Source: a virus
Lineage: Duplodnaviria > Heunggongvirae > Uroviricota > Caudoviricetes
Length of the DNA: 64,000 nt
Virus record (IMG/VR): IMGVR_UViG_3300047189_000028
Reading direction: 5' to 3' (one strand)
How positions within the stretch are numbered: the stretch's first letter is position 1; each line of letters begins with the position of its first letter. A program made the position numbers and the translations under genes. This document shows positions 4,199-43,525 of this stretch, one piece after another. The notes below the pieces were generated by a model. That model did not search any database. It worked only from the letters and a program-made list of their open reading frames with translations, and was not told the origin of the DNA.

Positions 4199-4300
4199 AT
4201 ATCACCTATTGGGTCAGTAAACAAATAGACATCACAATAACGTACAGAAGAATGCCGATTGTGACATTCCTCCAAAAATGAAACGGTTCGACTGGTTCGC

Positions 4301-4519
4301 TCATCGGTGAACATCGTCACGAGGATTTGGCTTCTCGCCAGAAGCACCCCAGTACGCAAGACGAATCAGCTCACCATCAGACAGCATGCAATACTCTCGT
4401 GTACACGCAAGACGGCGAGCCTCACGAAGGATTCGATCACCTTCGGGCGTTTCCGCCTTTCGCCCCCACAACGCTCTCGTCTCTGGTTTCGTTTCGTCTA
4501 CGATTTTCATAATCTTCAC
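4301..4519 (-). CDS. hypothetical protein (72 aa)
   Basis: ORF track. Confidence 0.4.
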   Translation of the reverse strand: MKIMKIVDETKPETRALWGRKAETPEGDRILREARRLACTREYCMLSDGELIRLAYWGASGEKPNPRDDVHR

Positions 4520-4925: not shown

Positions 4926-5289
4926 CTGTCACGTTGGAAAAGAAGCAGTCAGCCCATTGCTCCTCATTCCCTTCGAATACTTCTCCGCCTTCCACGATAA
5001 TATCAAGCTTCGGCAGTGGCTCAACAAATTCAGGTTGTTCGTACAATGGCTGCCAATAACCCAAATACCGTTCAAGTGCCTCAACAATTGGCTTCAGTAC
5101 AACATCAATTGGAGGATGGTGACTCGTTGTATAGTACACAGGTGCGATTGCATTCGGCGCAGCGTTCATATACGCACTGACACCGATTGGTCGGTTGTGC
5201 TCATATAAGATTCGCTTCAAGCTCTCATACGTCTGACATAGTACGAATGCAGCCTGTTCCGGATTACCGTTATAGTTCATCTGCATCAA
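4861..5289 (-). CDS. hypothetical protein (142 aa)
   Basis: ORF track. Confidence 0.45.
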   Translation of the reverse strand: MMQMNYNGNPEQAAFVLCQTYESLKRILYEHNRPIGVSAYMNAAPNAIAPVYYTTSHHPPIDVVLKPIVEALERYLGYWQPLYEQPEFVEPLPKLDIIVEGGEVFEGNEEQWADCFFSNVTVEGVEEFCKQNGWEVEITRRS

Positions 5290-5588
5290 ACAATCTCCAT
5301 TGTTCTCTCAACGATTGCCCATTCGATGTTCGACCACACGGTGATATTACCATCCTTACCCTTGATCTTGAGATTGCCAAGCGTACACCACGTATTCCAT
5401 GGATTCGACCTTGTTCGGCTGATTACTTCCAAAATGTCACCTTCGCGGTATACTTCAACCGGTGTGACAAACGAATGTAACACCCTAATCTTGTCCCCAG
5501 CTTTTGGTAGACGTGCAGGTGTATCCATAGTAATCGACATTCGCTTATTGCCGGCGCCATAAGCCTTTCTGATGATACTGAATCTCAT
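5286..5588 (-). CDS. hypothetical protein (100 aa)
   Basis: ORF track. Confidence 0.45.
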   Translation of the reverse strand: MRFSIIRKAYGAGNKRMSITMDTPARLPKAGDKIRVLHSFVTPVEVYREGDILEVISRTRSNPWNTWCTLGNLKIKGKDGNITVWSNIEWAIVERTMEIV

Positions 5589-5589
5589 A

Positions 5590-5912
5590 AAGTCTCCAAG
5601 AAGTGAAACGTTGTCAGCGCGAGGAATCGAACCTCGAATTCAAATGCGTGTTAACCGTTGACACTACCCCAACAACGTCATAAACAAATTCGCGATGAGT
5701 TAGGCTCATAACTCCACCTGACGGTCGGCTGCATCTGAGTCAGGTACCCAAGCCTTTCGTATGCAGTTGATGGCTCGGCGTCAATTCGCGTTCAGTATGT
5801 GCTGGGGGTCGAAACCCAGACAGGCCGCTAAGCCTTACACTGTTAAAGTAGTGTTGCCTCCTTCAGTGCTACGGTTTCGAACCCATATAGCATCGTGGCC
5901 ACACACCGAACA
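5590..5912 (-). ncRNA. promoter-driven structured non-coding transcript (no ORF of 60 aa or more), containing tRNA-like T-arm motifs and nested hairpins
   Basis: ~320 nt lies between the promoter at 5919..5947 and the next CDS. It contains GGTTCGATTCC (rc of 5622-5632) and a GGTTTCGAACC nested hairpin (5864-5906). Confidence 0.3.
5612..5673 (-). other. tRNA 3'-half-like fragment (T-arm CGAGG-TTCGATT-CCTCG plus a 7-nt acceptor-like strand); incomplete, no anticodon arm
   Basis: A canonical T-stem/loop is seen in the reverse complement. Folding as a full 72-nt cloverleaf fails: only ~62 nt and no anticodon arm. Confidence 0.25.
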
Positions 5913-5918
5913 CAGGAC

Positions 5919-5947
5919 ACTATACCCCAAACATTTTATGATGTCAA
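5919..5947 (-). promoter_or_regulatory. sigma70-like promoter TTGACA-N17-TATAGT (reads leftward)
   Basis: rc: TTGACAtcataaaatgtttggggTATAGT. Confidence 0.5.
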
Positions 5948-6251
5948 ATTGGGTGGGGGACACCGTTTCGTTGGTAGCCAAACAATGCGAATACGGTGCT
6001 AGGAGTGGGTGGCAATGGCGGGTTGTAACGCCGATCGGGGTAACAGTAAATACACAATGCAAGAACAGCTGCTAACTCATTGATGGGATTGGGAGAAATT
6101 GGGTAGTCAGCTGTTGTGTGATTATTGGTCTGGTTGGGTGAGACTTTGCAAAAACGTTACACACCCTAGAGGTTCAAAAGGTCAACAATTAAATTTTTCC
6201 AATCCAAATCGAATCGATCGTGTCGATCATTCCCACAGGTAACCTGTTTTT

Positions 6252-6983
6252 ATGAATAAACGAAAGTCTAAGTACCCACCATATTCGCAAGCTCGTGCTA
6301 GTGCACTAGATTTACAGCTTAATTCCCGTGCTGATTACATCAAGTGGCATAAGGATACAAAATGCCAATACCTCCCTCGTTATCCTGAGCGTGTGTATAA
6401 GGAGTTTGTTTCGTGGAATGATTGGCTTGGGACTGCAAATGTGTTCAAAGGAGATGTTGTTAAGCCAGCGCGTCCTTTCTGGGATGCTGTCAAGTGGGCG
6501 CAGGACCATGCTGCTGTTCATAAGTTAGATACTATGGCTGATTGGTTACTGTGGGTGAAGGAACATGAGGAAGAATTGCCTACCGACATTCCACCCCGAC
6601 CCGATACACGTTATACCGAATGGTCGCAAATAGGGTGGAAGGGATGGTTAGGAACGGATGTTCGTGGACGACTCGCAGCTGCTAAGCAGTCAACAGCTTT
6701 GTTCGCTATTTGTTCTCACCACAACCTTCGTATGCCTGGTAACAAGTTTGCATTGATACAAGCTGAGCAGGGGGAGGCTCAGTTGTTGAATATCCTAAAG
6801 CAGGCAGGCGACTTGCGAGTCGTTCGTTGCTACAAAATGGATAATGAGTTGAAAGAGAAGGTTCACGAACTGTTAGCTCAGTACGGTCGTGACGAAGGGG
6901 ATGGATGGTTCATCCCAAATGTTAACAATGTTCTGTTTGAGCTTGATGGAATGCTTCAGGTGTACCGTGGAAGTGGGATGTAA
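6252..6983 (+). CDS. hypothetical Trp-rich protein (243 aa); lone plus-strand gene inside a minus-strand block
   Basis: ORF track. Repeated Y..W..WLGT motifs, and HNLR followed ~36 aa later by Tyr (weak recombinase-like pattern). Confidence 0.5.
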   Translation: MNKRKSKYPPYSQARASALDLQLNSRADYIKWHKDTKCQYLPRYPERVYKEFVSWNDWLGTANVFKGDVVKPARPFWDAVKWAQDHAAVHKLDTMADWLLWVKEHEEELPTDIPPRPDTRYTEWSQIGWKGWLGTDVRGRLAAAKQSTALFAICSHHNLRMPGNKFALIQAEQGEAQLLNILKQAGDLRVVRCYKMDNELKEKVHELLAQYGRDEGDGWFIPNVNNVLFELDGMLQVYRGSGM

Positions 6984-7117
6984 GTGGGATAGTTGTGGGA
7001 TCAAACTGGGATTGTGTGGGATGCTAGTGGCATGAACCTGAACAAACCTTACAAGACCGTATTGTATGTTCGATAGAGTGGGATAACAGTGGGATCAAAC
7101 TGGGATTGTGTGGGATT
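6974..7117. repeat. two arrays (6+4 copies) of heptamer GTGGGAT/CTGGGAT phased every 11-12 bp, including a 29-bp direct repeat GTGGGATCAAACTGGGATTGTGTGGGAT x2
   Basis: Read directly: copies start at 6974, 6985, 6996, 7007, 7018, 7028 and at 7079, 7090, 7101, 7111. Confidence 0.9.
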
Positions 7118-7430
7118 ACGCAATAGGCAATTGGTCAAATGGGACGAGTATTCCCAATGGATACAGCTTCTTGAACTCCAATGATGCCTTCAATTCAGTA
7201 TCAAATCGCTTTTGATGCTTGAAGAATGAGTAAATCCCCAGATTTTCCACATAGTTCGCGCGGACATAGATCGCCCACTTACCATCAATACCGAGCTTGA
7301 CTGACGCGACTGCCTTTGAATCTAGCATATTTCCCCGAAAAATGACGCCTGAGCTTGGAACACCAGGCGTGGTCACAAATGTAACACTTCCAATACGGGC
7401 ATATTTCAGCCCTAGACGTAGTTGTCTCAC
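7116..7430 (-). CDS. hypothetical protein (104 aa)
   Basis: ORF track. Confidence 0.45.
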   Translation of the reverse strand: MRQLRLGLKYARIGSVTFVTTPGVPSSGVIFRGNMLDSKAVASVKLGIDGKWAIYVRANYVENLGIYSFFKHQKRFDTELKASLEFKKLYPLGILVPFDQLPIA

Positions 7431-7682
7431 CCAAAATGGAGTGAGAGCACGGATATTTAGCTTCCAACAAATTTAGTTTCAGGTCAACCGGAGTGTTGTC
7501 TGTGTTATTTTGGCCGGATGGACGGATCGAAGACACGATCCCACCGTATTATCCCAAAAATTCGTGTTGACTACAACAGACTGCTCCTTTATGGGTGAGG
7601 CAAAAGGTGACGGTCAACAGCGCACACCCGTTGAACAGCACACCAAAGGAGACGATAATGCTATTGTCAGGAACCGAGTGTC

Positions 7683-14815: not shown

Positions 14816-15100
14816 CTACTGGAGCGGGACCTCGTGGATCACCCACCAATCGTTCGGAAACTCGTAGCTGGTGTTGCGCAGGTTGACCTGGACGACAGGC
14901 GAACCCGCCTCCTTGAAGTCGACCTCGGTGATCTCGTACTGCTCTTCGGGATCATCCGCGGCATGCTCTGCAGCACATGCCTTGGCATGTGCGATTGCCT
15001 TGTCCCGCGTAGTGAACGCAGCACAGAAGCTATCGTGGAGGTCTGAGCAGCCGTACTCGATGATCCAGATAGTGGGATGCGAGTGGGATTCAGTAGTCAT
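14816..15100 (-). CDS. hypothetical protein (94 aa)
   Basis: Start MTTESHSHPTIW. The GTGGGAT repeats fall in codons 4-10; no alternative in-frame ATG. Confidence 0.4.
   Translation of the reverse strand: MTTESHSHPTIWIIEYGCSDLHDSFCAAFTTRDKAIAHAKACAAEHAADDPEEQYEITEVDFKEAGSPVVQVNLRNTSYEFPNDWWVIHEVPLQ
15071..15088. repeat. two phased GTGGGAT heptamers
   Basis: Read directly. Confidence 0.8.
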
Positions 15101-15324: not shown

Positions 15325-15353
15325 GTGGGATCCTTGTGGGATGTGAGTGGGAT
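15325..15353. repeat. three phased GTGGGAT heptamers (11-bp spacing)
   Basis: Read directly. Confidence 0.85.
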
Positions 15354-22380: not shown

Positions 22381-22652
22381 AGATCACCAAAGCCAAGGCG
22401 AAGGTCGAGTTCTGTGTCGAGACCTCGTACCCAGCACAGTACTACTCGATTGAGCATGACGAAGCCATCGAGAAGCTCGCCAAGAAGTTCAAGGGCGAGC
22501 GCACTGGTGCCGGCATGGGTTTCGGTTACCGCGACAACGGTTTTTCATTTGCCAATGAAGTCACACGCGCTGCATTCGTCGGCGCCCTCACGAAAGCTCA
22601 GAAGACGCTGAAGGTCAGTAAGTGCTACCTGAGCGTTTACATCAACGACTAG
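22377..22652 (+). CDS. hypothetical protein (91 aa)
   Basis: ATGA coupling. Confidence 0.45.
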   Translation: MKITKAKAKVEFCVETSYPAQYYSIEHDEAIEKLAKKFKGERTGAGMGFGYRDNGFSFANEVTRAAFVGALTKAQKTLKVSKCYLSVYIND

Positions 22653-22679
22653 TGGGATGACAGTGGGATCCAACTGGGA
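22651..22679. repeat. three phased heptamers GTGGGAT-GTGGGAT-CTGGGAT upstream of a plus-strand gene
   Basis: Read directly; 12- and 11-bp spacing. Confidence 0.85.
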
Positions 22680-41290: not shown

Positions 41291-43525
41291 TTAACTCCTG
41301 TCGATGAGTTCAATGTAGTCGAACAAAACAGTCAAATCCTTTCCGCTGGAGTAACTGATGCTGCTAATATAGCTGAACATCGGATACACCTTGAATGCGT
41401 TGTCGTCAAAATATCCTGGAACCTTATTATCAAACAAACCAAGGCCCAAGTCCACATTTATTTGCCTGATGAACCTGACCATACGGCCAACCTTGCCAAA
41501 CTTTGCATGATCTTCAATGAGAGGCAGTACCGCTACCCTGAAAGCAGAATCCTTGTCAAGTTTCTGAACAAGTTTGACGAAATCGGAAGTGCTCTTTTCG
41601 GTGCAGCGAGTCTTGATTCCGTGTGCATCGCTCGTACGCTCGATTGCATCGAAGTAGTGAACCGCAGTGTCATATCCCTTAACAACTTCCTTGAGGACGT
41701 CGAAGAGATTGACCCAGTTCTCATTCTTCTTGATCTTACCGATCGCCTGCGAACCAAAACCGTAAATGTCCTTAACACTGTAATCAGTCTTGAGGTGCTT
41801 GTTGATCAGATCGATCGCAACCACGAAGTTGCCTTCGACATCACTGATCTTCCAGTTTACGTTCTCCAGAACACCATTCTTCATGAACGACACATGCGCG
41901 CCGTTCTGAAGGTGGAAGTAAAGGCCACCCTTCTCGAGGTCGATTGTAGGCGTACGCTTCCAAACGATGTACGGATTGTACTTACCTTGAATGCCACTGA
42001 ACTGAAAGATCGGAAGTTCGTTCTTGTACGAACCACGAGCACGTTCAGGAATCGGTGCATCCTTGCTAGTAAGCAAGAAATTGACATTGCCGAGCTCCTG
42101 GCGCAGGCGGGTTAGCTCAGTCAGGTAGTGCTGCTCAGTCCACACTTCTTTCTTGAGCATCTTTTGACCGCTCGGATCGTACACGACCTCTTCGAAATCC
42201 TTCTTGGGGCGAATAACGATCGCAGTCGGAGCATGCTGACCGTATGCCTTGTTGGCACGACGGACCCACTCCATCGCACGAGCAACACCACCAACCGGCA
42301 GATCGTTGTAGAATACAACGATATGTGACTCAGGTGTGACACCACTACCAAACGTCTTGCGCTTGACCGTGCGTCCTTCTTTTCCATGTGTCTGCTCAAA
42401 TACCGAAATCTCGTGACCAGTCAGCGAACCAACCTGCAGAGTGCCACCAATCTTGACGTACTCCCGAATCTGTGTGTTGGTCGTTTCTTTGACGAATTCC
42501 TTGAATAGGTTGCGGTTGCCAAAAATCTGTTCAGCAACCGTGTGGAGCTGAATCATGACATCCCAAAACGGCTTGTCTTTGAGAGCTTCAACTTGATCCT
42601 CAACCGACTTGAGAACACCCGCGCGGACAGCCTTGATCTTCTCGATCAGTGCAGCCTTCGAGCGATCATCGTAACGAATTTCCTCACGGTTGGCAGCAAC
42701 CTCAAGATCGCCGATGTCGAAGAATCCGACAATGTGTGCGTTCTCAAGGATCTTCGTGTCGCTTGCGCTGAGCTCCAGCTTGCTGATGTCAACCTTGTAG
42801 GCGACGTTGCCCTGTACTGCAGTCATTTTGCTGTAGTCGCCAGCGAAGTTCTTTTCGAACATCTTCCAACCTTCGCCCTCGAGGCGCTCTTTGGAAACCT
42901 CCGGCCACGAGAAATTGTGTGAACCAACAACTTCCGGCTTAATCGGGAACCAGCGAAGTGCCTTTGCAGTCTTTTCACTGAACACATACCAGTCGCTAGC
43001 AGCAACTGTAATACGAACTTCAAGACCATTGTGCTCATCAGTGTTGATCTCACCGAGACGAGCGATCGACGGAACACCATCTTCGTTAATGAACGCGGAG
43101 TATGTGCGGCGCATTCCATTGAAGCGTGACACAACCTCGAAAGCCTTTGTGTAACTGAACGGACTCTTCGATCCGAGGCCGAGAGCACCAATGAACGCGT
43201 TGCTGTTTGACTTCGTGGAATCAAAATACGTGGTGTAGAGCTGCATGACGTCTTCGTCAGACAAGCCAGTACCGAAATCACGAACGTGGAACCACGGCTC
43301 TAGTGAATTCGGAAGGTGAATCTCAAACGCCTGATCAGCATTGCCAGCTGCGACGTGCGCATCCCAGGCATTGCAAGACAGTTCGCGGACAATCGCAAGT
43401 TTCGGGTCGGTATAGAGGCCGGATGATAGAATGTCAAAGGCCTTGGCAGTCGTCTTGATACTGAACGCCCGTTCGGACGCAACACCAAATCGCTCAATAT
43501 CATTACGTTCGGTATGAAGTTTCAT
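41291..43525 (-). CDS. rIIA: rIIA-like protein (histidine-kinase-like ATPase fold)
   Basis: N-terminus AFSIKTTAKAFDILSSGLYTDPKLAIVRELSCNAWDAH and FIGALGLGSKSPFSYT closely match T4 rIIA ([20 protein letters not shown]...VRELITNMIDAH; FIGGFGLGSKSPFSYT). Confidence 0.85.
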   Translation of the reverse strand: MKLHTERNDIERFGVASERAFSIKTTAKAFDILSSGLYTDPKLAIVRELSCNAWDAHVAAGNADQAFEIHLPNSLEPWFHVRDFGTGLSDEDVMQLYTTYFDSTKSNSNAFIGALGLGSKSPFSYTKAFEVVSRFNGMRRTYSAFINEDGVPSIARLGEINTDEHNGLEVRITVAASDWYVFSEKTAKALRWFPIKPEVVGSHNFSWPEVSKERLEGEGWKMFEKNFAGDYSKMTAVQGNVAYKVDISKLELSASDTKILENAHIVGFFDIGDLEVAANREEIRYDDRSKAALIEKIKAVRAGVLKSVEDQVEALKDKPFWDVMIQLHTVAEQIFGNRNLFKEFVKETTNTQIREYVKIGGTLQVGSLTGHEISVFEQTHGKEGRTVKRKTFGSGVTPESHIVVFYNDLPVGGVARAMEWVRRANKAYGQHAPTAIVIRPKKDFEEVVYDPSGQKMLKKEVWTEQHYLTELTRLRQELGNVNFLLTSKDAPIPERARGSYKNELPIFQFSGIQGKYNPYIVWKRTPTIDLEKGGLYFHLQNGAHVSFMKNGVLENVNWKISDVEGNFVVAIDLINKHLKTDYSVKDIYGFGSQAIGKIKKNENWVNLFDVLKEVVKGYDTAVHYFDAIERTSDAHGIKTRCTEKSTSDFVKLVQKLDKDSAFRVAVLPLIEDHAKFGKVGRMVRFIRQINVDLGLGLFDNKVPGYFDDNAFKVYPMFSYISSISYSSGKDLTVLFDYIELIDRS

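Follow-up and report, generated by a model that had tools for sequence, protein, structure and literature searches.

The stable RNAs rnaC (species 1) and rnaD (species 2) of phage T4 are small non-coding RNAs that combine a tRNA-like T arm and a closing stem with non-tRNA arms in between. In rnaC, for example, the closing stem encloses a long hairpin, another hairpin, and a canonical T arm. The genes of both RNAs close a cluster that contains eight genuine tRNA genes. To our knowledge, the T4 tRNA-like stable RNAs have no assigned function decades after their discovery, and nothing on these RNAs turned up in our literature search.

Other tRNA-like RNAs resemble one or the other of the two modules described below. 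Allo-tRNAs and further irregular tRNAs have a longer acceptor stem, a long variable arm, anticodon stems that are longer or irregular, and a very wide range of anticodons. An extra loop is found in some of them, a regulatory role in place of a translational one is suspected for some, and allo-tRNAs can be active (Mukai et al., 2017, PMC5389517). The mascRNA of MALAT1 has a tRNA body of ~60 nt in which the anticodon arm is rudimentary or absent, and it lies within a longer transcript. MALAT1-mascRNA and mitochondrial tRNA punctuation work via the recruitment of RNase P and a 3' endonuclease. The tRNA-like domain of tmRNA consists of an acceptor and a T arm with a reduced D region and no anticodon arm. 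Here, we compare these systems with two tRNA-like modules encoded in an ORF-free region of a phage genome.

Gene neighborhood, promoter, and leader

The window, which is the whole 64-kb stretch of DNA that was analyzed, is by its predicted proteins a stretch of an uncultured, very divergent T4-like phage. A 744-aa ORF (41291-43525) encodes an rIIA homolog with ~30% identity to RIIA of Vibrio and other T4-type phages, and a SprT-like protein and a superfamily-2 helicase are among the other products of the window. Almost none of the small leftward ORFs match Pfam or PHROGs, and no nucleotide match to the window was found in 50,697 GenBank phage records. ARAGORN, named as a check in the original prediction that drew attention to this locus, found nothing in the whole window (0 tRNA, 0 tmRNA).

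The studied interval is the 663-nt gap between a leftward gene (5286-5588) and a rightward gene (6252-6983). The leftward gene (5588-5286, minus strand; 100 aa) is the first gene of a putative leftward early operon and is served by the Shine-Dalgarno (SD) sequence GGAG at 5597-5594 on the same strand. A single homolog of its product was found, in the related locus L067, with 58% identity. The divergent gene (6252..6983, plus strand) was said to be the only plus-strand gene in the left block, and the ORF list confirms it as the sole rightward gene there. Its product carries helical INT_rpt-type repeats and a C-terminal GIY-YIG-like domain, and from its predicted fold it looks like a GIY-YIG nuclease that adjoins the leader RNA. 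A weak HxxR...Y pattern noted earlier in this protein is without support, as no integrase family matches and the fold is GIY-YIG-like. We found 55 homologs of the protein, through which the syntenic loci were retrieved. Synteny of this gene and the sequence around it extends over more than 12 related phages, whether or not they carry the RNA described below. No link to tRNA genes emerged, given that these occur near distant homologs of the gene in only two of 60 loci.

The minus strand of the gap carries a sigma70-type early promoter, with the -35 hexamer TTGACA at 5942..5947 and the -10 hexamer TATAGT at 5919..5924. The hexamers are separated by a 17-nt spacer and match the consensus at 11 of 12 positions overall. 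Promoter-like sites are not enriched in this part of the window (two found in 5000-7500, versus 3.6 expected by chance). The arrangement TTGACA-N17-TAnnnT recurs at the equivalent position in L001, L065, L067, L003, L064, L066, L089, and L090. The consensus matches and the position shared by syntenic loci bear out the promoter originally proposed at 5919..5947. Based on the spacing from the -10 hexamer, the predicted transcription start is G5911, 7 nt past the -10. The closing stem of module 1, in its 12-bp extended form, begins with this G, and the same spacing (the -10 hexamer, 7 nt, and then the start of the closing stem) is found in the window, L001, L065, and L067.

Also borne out is the claim that the promoter is followed by ~320 nt without an ORF: the transcribed strand has none between 5918 and 5589, and all three of its frames are closed by stops. 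In L065, stops occur in all six frames inside the conserved RNA. A hidden protein gene was rejected because the ORFs at 5761-6075 (plus strand) and 5835-6062 (minus strand) score alike by tblastn on both strands. The strand-equal scores and the six-frame stops in L065 thus place the conservation at the nucleotide or RNA level. No terminators were found on the minus strand between 5589 and 5918. We hold with moderate confidence that 5589-5947 represents the promoter and 5' leader (~320 nt) of an early leftward operon in a T4-like phage.

A conserved and covarying RNA behind the promoter

Aligning the gap of the window with the equivalent gaps of related phages revealed a conserved block, the tRNA-like module 1 (5790..5911, minus strand; core 5794-5907, ~114 nt). 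Module 1 is conserved directly behind the promoter in L001, L002, L065, and L067 as well as in the window. In these four relatives, the promoter is followed by the element, by 20-35 nt of unstructured spacer, and then by the SD and AUG. The window differs in having a 110-nt spacer and a second tRNA-like module (module 2) intercalated between module 1 and the first gene. A pattern scan of IMG/VR recovered another copy of module 1 in an unrelated contig, L079. There it lies within a ~1-kb non-coding array among other irregular tRNA-like pieces, in a T4-type tRNA region. Two GIY-YIG ORFs and one RNA-ligase-like ORF border this array, a layout reminiscent of the T4 tRNA region with segB; no relatives of the array were found. 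In seven of the 12 syntenic loci the promoter is kept and module 1 is absent, thus the module is dispensable, an optional cassette.

The same IMG/VR scan, with the pattern CTTAGCGGC-N(3-10)-GGGTTTCGA, otherwise returned 18 chance matches in coding DNA. A stricter pattern applied to 185,579 bacterial and archaeal genomes gave one chance match and no module 1, an nhmmer profile of the 3' half recovered only the six known members from 710 kb of fetched loci, and blastn of module 1 against GenBank phages gave nothing. As far as these searches reach, module 1 is a small undescribed family of structured phage RNAs with six members that is absent from Rfam.

All members can form the same six helices, in tRNA order. 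The closing stem is 8 bp long and extends to 12 bp in the window through pairing of 5911-5900 with 5801-5790. The D stem (3-4 bp) has an internal loop, and a hairpin of 26-35 nt is inserted in the D loop. In the window, this hairpin (5867..5892, minus strand) is built on the palindrome GGTTTCGAACC; it is present in six of six members with unrelated sequences, and 29 of 29 cells are paired. A nested hairpin on this palindrome had been proposed at 5864-5906. The hairpin itself is real, at 5867-5892, but it is a D-loop insertion of module 1 rather than a free-standing element. It is followed by CUGAAGGA (5866-5859, minus strand), which holds an invariant A-GG.

The anticodon-like arm of the window (5837..5854, minus strand) consists of the stem ACACU/AGUGU and the 8-nt loop ACUUUAAC. 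Across the family, the anticodon stems have 5-7 bp with irregularities, and the six loops (ACUUUAAC, UUUAGAC, CUUAGAA, CUUGUAU, CUUUGAA, and UAUUAUC) are all different. The anticodon-like triplets are UUA (window, in its 8-nt loop), UAG, UAG, UGU, UUG, and none. Four of the six loops are 7 nt long and read pyrimidine-U-NNN-purine, i.e., they are of the U33/R37 type; a binomial estimate puts the chance of four such loops in six at ~2e-4 to 3e-3, depending on whether position 32 is included. The long variable-arm hairpin (5822..5835, minus strand; AGGCU-UAGC-GGCCU) has 5 bp and a 4-nt loop, and it is found with an invariant CUUAGCGG in five of six members and is missing in L001. The T arm (5802..5819, minus strand) reads CUGGG-UUUCGACC-CCCAG. 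Its loop contains UUUCGAY, invariant in all six members, and comprises 8 nt (7 nt in L002). The T arm abuts the 3' strand of the closing stem, which gives a stack of 8 + 5 = 13 bp in each of the six members. Directly after the 8-bp stem, the six members have G, C, U, C, C, and U, with no conserved discriminator, and CCA directly follows the stem in only two members (L001 and L067) and not in the window. Compared across the family, the anticodon-like loop of module 1 is free in sequence and the variable-arm and T loops are frozen.

The structural alignment (window, L001, L002, L065, L067, and L079) was made by hand and fitted to the structure, with three bulged bases omitted. MAFFT did not reproduce it, also when sequences were N-padded or trimmed, and the pair statistics were obtained with a custom script. 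Standard pairs occupy 180 of the 184 pair cells (97.8%), and compensatory changes occur in 25 of 32 pairs. When the 3' partners were shuffled within columns, 65% of cells were paired (maximum 73%), and when the partners were slid by 1-3 columns, 35-52% were paired, with at most one fully compensated pair. Fully paired positions that changed on both sides number 21, versus a maximum of six in 1000 shuffles. Given this fitting to the structure, the numbers for the anticodon arm and the D-loop hairpin chiefly tell that a hairpin is present there, whereas conserved sequence flanks the closing, D, variable, and T stems on either side and anchors them. For L002 and L065, energy minimization returns the cloverleaf itself as the best fold. 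The window has an alternative that is more stable than the cloverleaf by 1.6 kcal/mol, with base pairing between the T arm (GGUUUCGA) and the apical loop of the inserted hairpin (UCGAAACC). The folding energy of module 1 is not significantly below that of shuffles. The comparison of the six members shows that the structure of module 1 is conserved and covarying, and by this measure under structural selection. As modeled, module 1 would fold as a class-II or tRNA-Sec-like cloverleaf, which we regard as reasonably probable.

Module 1 has no match to the Rfam tRNA model even at E ≤ 10, and ARAGORN found 0 genes in L001-L003 and L064-L067. The L065 copy aligns end-to-end to the tRNA-Sec model as 9/4 with 17 bits, versus a threshold of 47. 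T4 rnaC also aligns end-to-end to this model, with 17.5 bits compared to 17.0 bits for the L065 module 1. The extended acceptor/T stack and the long variable arm of tRNA-Sec and allo-tRNAs are both found in module 1, and its stack of 13 bp (8/5) is as in bacterial tRNA-Sec. The 6-bp D stem, 4-nt loop, and UCA of tRNA-Sec and the serine identity and G73 of allo-tRNAs are not found in it. We are not aware of any functional tRNA that carries an extra hairpin in its D loop. Module 1 is like the allo-tRNAs in its tRNA-Sec-like shape, long variable arm, and diverse anticodon-like loops. However, the acceptor/T stack of allo-tRNAs is 12 bp long (8/4 or 9/3), and they have serine identity elements and a 3' end that is free (PMC5389517), whereas the stack of module 1 is 13 bp long (8/5), its T loop has 8 nt, its flanks are paired, its discriminator varies, and it carries the D-loop hairpin.

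Like rnaC and rnaD, the modules would be small non-coding RNAs of a T4-type phage, and module 1 also has their tRNA-like T arm and closing stem with non-tRNA arms in between. A defined variable arm, an anticodon-like arm, and a promoter of its own directly upstream set module 1 apart from the T4 RNAs; there is also no tRNA gene in the window, in contrast to the T4 cluster. No sequence similarity between module 1 and rnaC or rnaD was detectable by blastn in the 50,697 phage records. With a likeness in shape and none in sequence, we thus treat module 1 as being of the same kind as the T4 stable RNAs but not of the same family.

The tRNA-like module ahead of the first gene

Module 2 (5607..5679, minus strand; core 5612-5673) is located 15 nt upstream of the ribosome-binding site, and its limits follow an Rfam tRNA match and the fold with its flanks. 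The Infernal search of Rfam that had been proposed for this locus had a divided outcome: at gathering thresholds nothing was listed for the whole window, and a focused search of 901 nt matched 5612-5673 to the tRNA model (RF00005) with 29.1 bits (gathering 29.0; E = 7.8e-4), the same match that is not listed in the whole-window run. Module 2 aligns to positions 1-71 of the model, with only the anticodon arm collapsed; in the Rfam alignment, 2 nt stand in place of the central 13 nt of the arm, and the arm is replaced by about 6 nt. The acceptor stem GUUGGGG/CGCUGAC has six pairs (two of them G-U) and one G-G mismatch. U8-A9 is present, the D stem is GUGU/ACAC with GG in the D loop, position 14 is C, and the T arm reads CGAGG-UUCGAUU-CCUCG. 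The stem reaches ~11 bp with its flanks because the leader ACGUU pairs with the trailer AACGU, and there is no free NCCA end. The folding energy of module 2 is not significantly below that of shuffles.

The T arm and acceptor-like strand that the original prediction placed at 5612-5673 are therefore real, as the 29.1-bit match attests. Its further description as a 3'-half fragment without an anticodon arm holds for the missing arm but not for the 3' half, since the 5' acceptor strand and the D arm are present. As modeled, module 2 is a complete tRNA body (acceptor, D, and T arms) minus the anticodon arm and not a 3' fragment.

The second-best Rfam match of module 2 is to the mascRNA model (22.1 bits, versus a threshold of 42.5). 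Like mascRNA, module 2 would be a tRNA body with little or no anticodon arm embedded in a longer transcript; in contrast, mascRNA-type signals are eukaryotic families. It also shares with the tRNA-like domain of tmRNA the acceptor and T arm and the absence of an anticodon arm. Unlike tmRNA, it lacks a tag reading frame, pseudoknots, and the alanine-identity G3-U70, and its acceptor strands are contiguous, whereas those of tmRNA are ~300 nt apart. A tmRNA or permuted tmRNA was rejected based on the negative ARAGORN result and the normal order of the acceptor strands in module 2.

Searches for relatives of module 2 gave only short T-arm matches by blastn against phages and E. coli genomes, and two chance matches in coding DNA in a pattern scan of IMG/VR. 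GenBank phages, IMG/VR, and the fetched loci yielded no homolog, and no such tRNA-like element lies upstream of the L067 homolog of the 100-aa protein. In Streptomyces phages, a weak blastn piece corresponds to an unannotated D-arm plus T-arm sequence beside tRNA genes. Module 2 may either mark a processing site directly before the first gene or be a tRNA gene that was disabled recently.

In both modules of the window, the T loop is of the UUCRA type and the D loop contains GG, and the elbow contact between them is predicted. Neither module is called by a dedicated tRNA finder or has a 5-bp/7-nt anticodon arm. A free discriminator and (N)CCA on a 7-bp acceptor are also lacking, and both stems run into their flanks (12 bp and ~11 bp, respectively). 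Decoding by module 1 or module 2 appears unlikely because neither has a free NCCA or a conserved discriminator base. Known RNA families were rejected for the leader, as the focused Rfam runs gave only weak tRNA, mascRNA, and tRNA-Sec matches. A riboswitch, T-box, or other cis-regulatory RNA was rejected for want of an Rfam match (at gathering thresholds, and over module 1 also at E ≤ 10), a terminator, or an SD-sequestering helix.

Possible roles of the leader RNAs

From sequence and predicted structure, we think it fairly probable that the leader holds non-decoding tRNA mimics, of which module 1 is functional. Host RNA polymerase would start at the first base of module 1, and both modules would fold into L-shapes with an intact D/T elbow. 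The D/T elbow of tRNA is recognized by RNase P, 3' processing enzymes, the CCA-adding enzyme, and several modification enzymes. In module 1, the D-loop GG would be the bases that normally dock on the T loop. Host tRNA-handling enzymes (RNase P, 3' endonucleases, and possibly modification enzymes) may thus recognize the modules, and cleavage would free stable small RNAs and also fix the 5' terminus of the early mRNA that follows, a processing that we liken to that of T4 rnaC and rnaD.

For module 1, the invariance of the variable-arm and T loops suggests a specific trans-acting partner, and our preferred guess is that, early in infection, the module engages a host factor that binds tRNA, either occupying it or serving as a decoy. 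An anticodon-like loop that varies between members would be suitable for decoying host factors directed at tRNA. In a bolder form, module 1 would be a new class of tRNA mimic that is produced as infection begins, with invariant loops for binding a particular host or phage factor and an anticodon-like loop matched to the tRNA specificity of a tRNA-targeting immune nuclease or modifying enzyme of the host, acting as a decoy or sponge against defenses directed at tRNA, or else a charged irregular tRNA with a D-loop expansion for recoding certain codons; this is speculative, and we think it improbable.

Other explanations have to be weighed against these tRNA mimics. Module 2 may be a dead tRNA gene that lost ~12 nt of its anticodon arm, with only module 1 functional, a reading that is compatible with the main one and that we consider a serious possibility, short of an even chance. 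It would fit the lack of homologs in GenBank phages, IMG/VR, and the fetched loci, the lack of an upstream element in L067, the sole locus with a homolog of the downstream gene, and the erosion of canonical features (the G-G mismatch, the two G-U pairs, C14, and a score barely at the Rfam threshold), and the piece beside the tRNA genes of Streptomyces phages offers a comparable case. On the other hand, the D stem, T stem, G18G19, and T loop are intact, the flanks add five base pairs that are not expected of random decay, and a site 15 nt before the ribosome-binding site would suit a processing signal. Useless DNA is usually deleted quickly from phage genomes, and this tendency also argues against a dead gene. 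A different alternative, which we judge unlikely, is that the modules act only in cis, with no RNA acting in trans: the structured 5' end would guard the mRNA against decay that depends on its 5' end, or would adjust how well the first gene is translated. Module 1 does lie between the promoter and the first ribosome-binding site, and the predicted start is its first paired base. Stem-loops at the 5' terminus are an established stabilizer of mRNA in E. coli, as known from work on the ompA leader. A plain hairpin would suffice for this purpose, however, which leaves the invariant loops, the tRNA topology, and the D-region GG unexplained. Moreover, the L079 copy lies inside an array of tRNA-like genes and not at a 5' end, and no terminator or SD-sequestering alternative structure is found downstream.

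We give much less weight to a true decoding role, in which module 1, as an irregular class II tRNA of the allo-tRNA type, would be charged, used on the ribosome, and perhaps active in suppression or recoding; this is very unlikely. Its tRNA-like topology with a long variable arm, the U33/R37 signature in four of six loops, and the CCA just past the stem in L001 and L067 would be in line with decoding, and allo-tRNAs with similarly long stems and arms exist and can be active (PMC5389517). These features are set against the missing free NCCA, the varying discriminator, the paired leader and trailer, the hairpin inserted in the D loop, and the 8-nt anticodon-like loop of the window, and also against the negative results with ARAGORN and the Rfam tRNA model and the 17 versus 47 bits for tRNA-Sec. 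The original prediction had also raised an attachment-site relic of an integrated element, for which the plus-strand gene would encode the recombinase. The 3' parts of tRNAs classically serve as attachment sites, and the plus-strand gene is alone in its orientation in the left block. Nonetheless, we find this hardly credible. The genome is T4-like, no integrase family matches, and the neighboring protein has a fold like GIY-YIG nucleases and not tyrosine recombinases. We found no tyrosine or serine recombinase gene adjoining the tRNA-like piece. Further, the region of the plus-strand gene is syntenic with or without the RNA, and module 2 has both acceptor strands rather than just a 3' part.

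The module 1 family, unrelated in sequence but similar in shape to the T4 stable RNAs, offers clear covariation, invariant loops, and an early promoter as a testable handle on the role of tRNA mimics in large lytic phages. The invariant loops would mark the likely contact points. Host defenses that target tRNA, and the counter-measures of phages, are currently under intense study. Genes that are tRNA-shaped but have D-loop insertions or missing arms escape the standard tRNA finders and Rfam, thus the "non-coding gaps" of phage genomes may hide more of them.

A minor observation concerns the spacer between the two modules (5680..5789, minus strand). It has no relatives, and its folding energy is not beyond that of shuffles (z = -0.75). 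Hairpins are predicted at 5778-5748, 5745-5716, and 5714-5697, weakly supported, and the loops of the first two are complementary (CUGCAU/AUGCAG).

Upstream region of the plus-strand gene and the GTGGGAT arrays

Two blocks upstream of the plus-strand gene (6252-6983, +) are kept in almost all of the syntenic loci compared, namely ACAGTAAATA at 6043-6052 and TTGCAAAAACGTTACACACCC at 6146-6166, both on the plus strand. The first block, ACAGTAAATA, is similar to the T4 late-promoter box, TATAAATA. A sigma70-type promoter serving this gene was not detected.

The region upstream of the same gene is also filled, at 6080-6140, with TGGGA/T motifs related to GTGGGAT, a heptamer with 28 occurrences in the window where 6.75 would be expected. 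The majority of its copies are intergenic and form same-strand arrays with a spacing of 11 nt, the plus-strand arrays lying at 6973-7116, 15072-15089, 15325-15353, and 22652-22669. In a comparison locus that carries a homologue of the plus-strand gene (L116), the same GTGGGAT arrays are found upstream of that homologue. A phage DNA-binding protein probably recognises these arrays.

Base composition also varies along the window: G+C content rises from about 0.45 to 0.50-0.57 within 8000-30000, and the AT skew switches sign at about 16 kb. Together, these shifts suggest either a block of other origin or an effect of gene orientation.

tRNA-like RNAs in other phages

A non-coding array of approximately 1 kb was identified on the minus strand of an IMG/VR contig (L079, 4250-5250). 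Inside it are a homologue of module 1 (the tRNA-like RNA at 5794-5907, -); the 3' two-thirds of a tRNA-Glu(UUC)-like gene, with the start of that gene's D loop some 130 nt further upstream; and, at 4288-4354, one more tRNA-like piece of irregular form. Two GIY-YIG ORFs and one RNA-ligase-like ORF flank the array, which resembles a T4-type tRNA region composed mostly of irregular tRNA-like genes.

The T4 species 1 RNA (rnaC; L087, 1909-2047) folds much more favourably than its shuffles (z = -4.6). No Rfam family covers this RNA, and the Rfam tRNA-Sec model aligns to it end to end, weakly.

About 20 related Streptomyces phages carry an unannotated piece, directly 3' of a tRNA-Pro gene, that consists of a D-arm and a T-arm without an anticodon arm (L098 1487-1545, corresponding to 73951-74009 in phage Karimac). 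Its layout is the same as that of module 2 (5612-5673, -), although the match is a weak one (E = 8) and the piece is without a convincing acceptor stem.

Complementary loops in the spacer

Two neighbouring predicted hairpins in the spacer between modules 1 and 2 (5680-5789, -) have perfectly complementary loops, CUGCAU (5766-5761, -) and AUGCAG (5734-5729, -). In this spacer, which is known from the window alone, the modelled loops could engage in a kissing interaction or pseudoknot.
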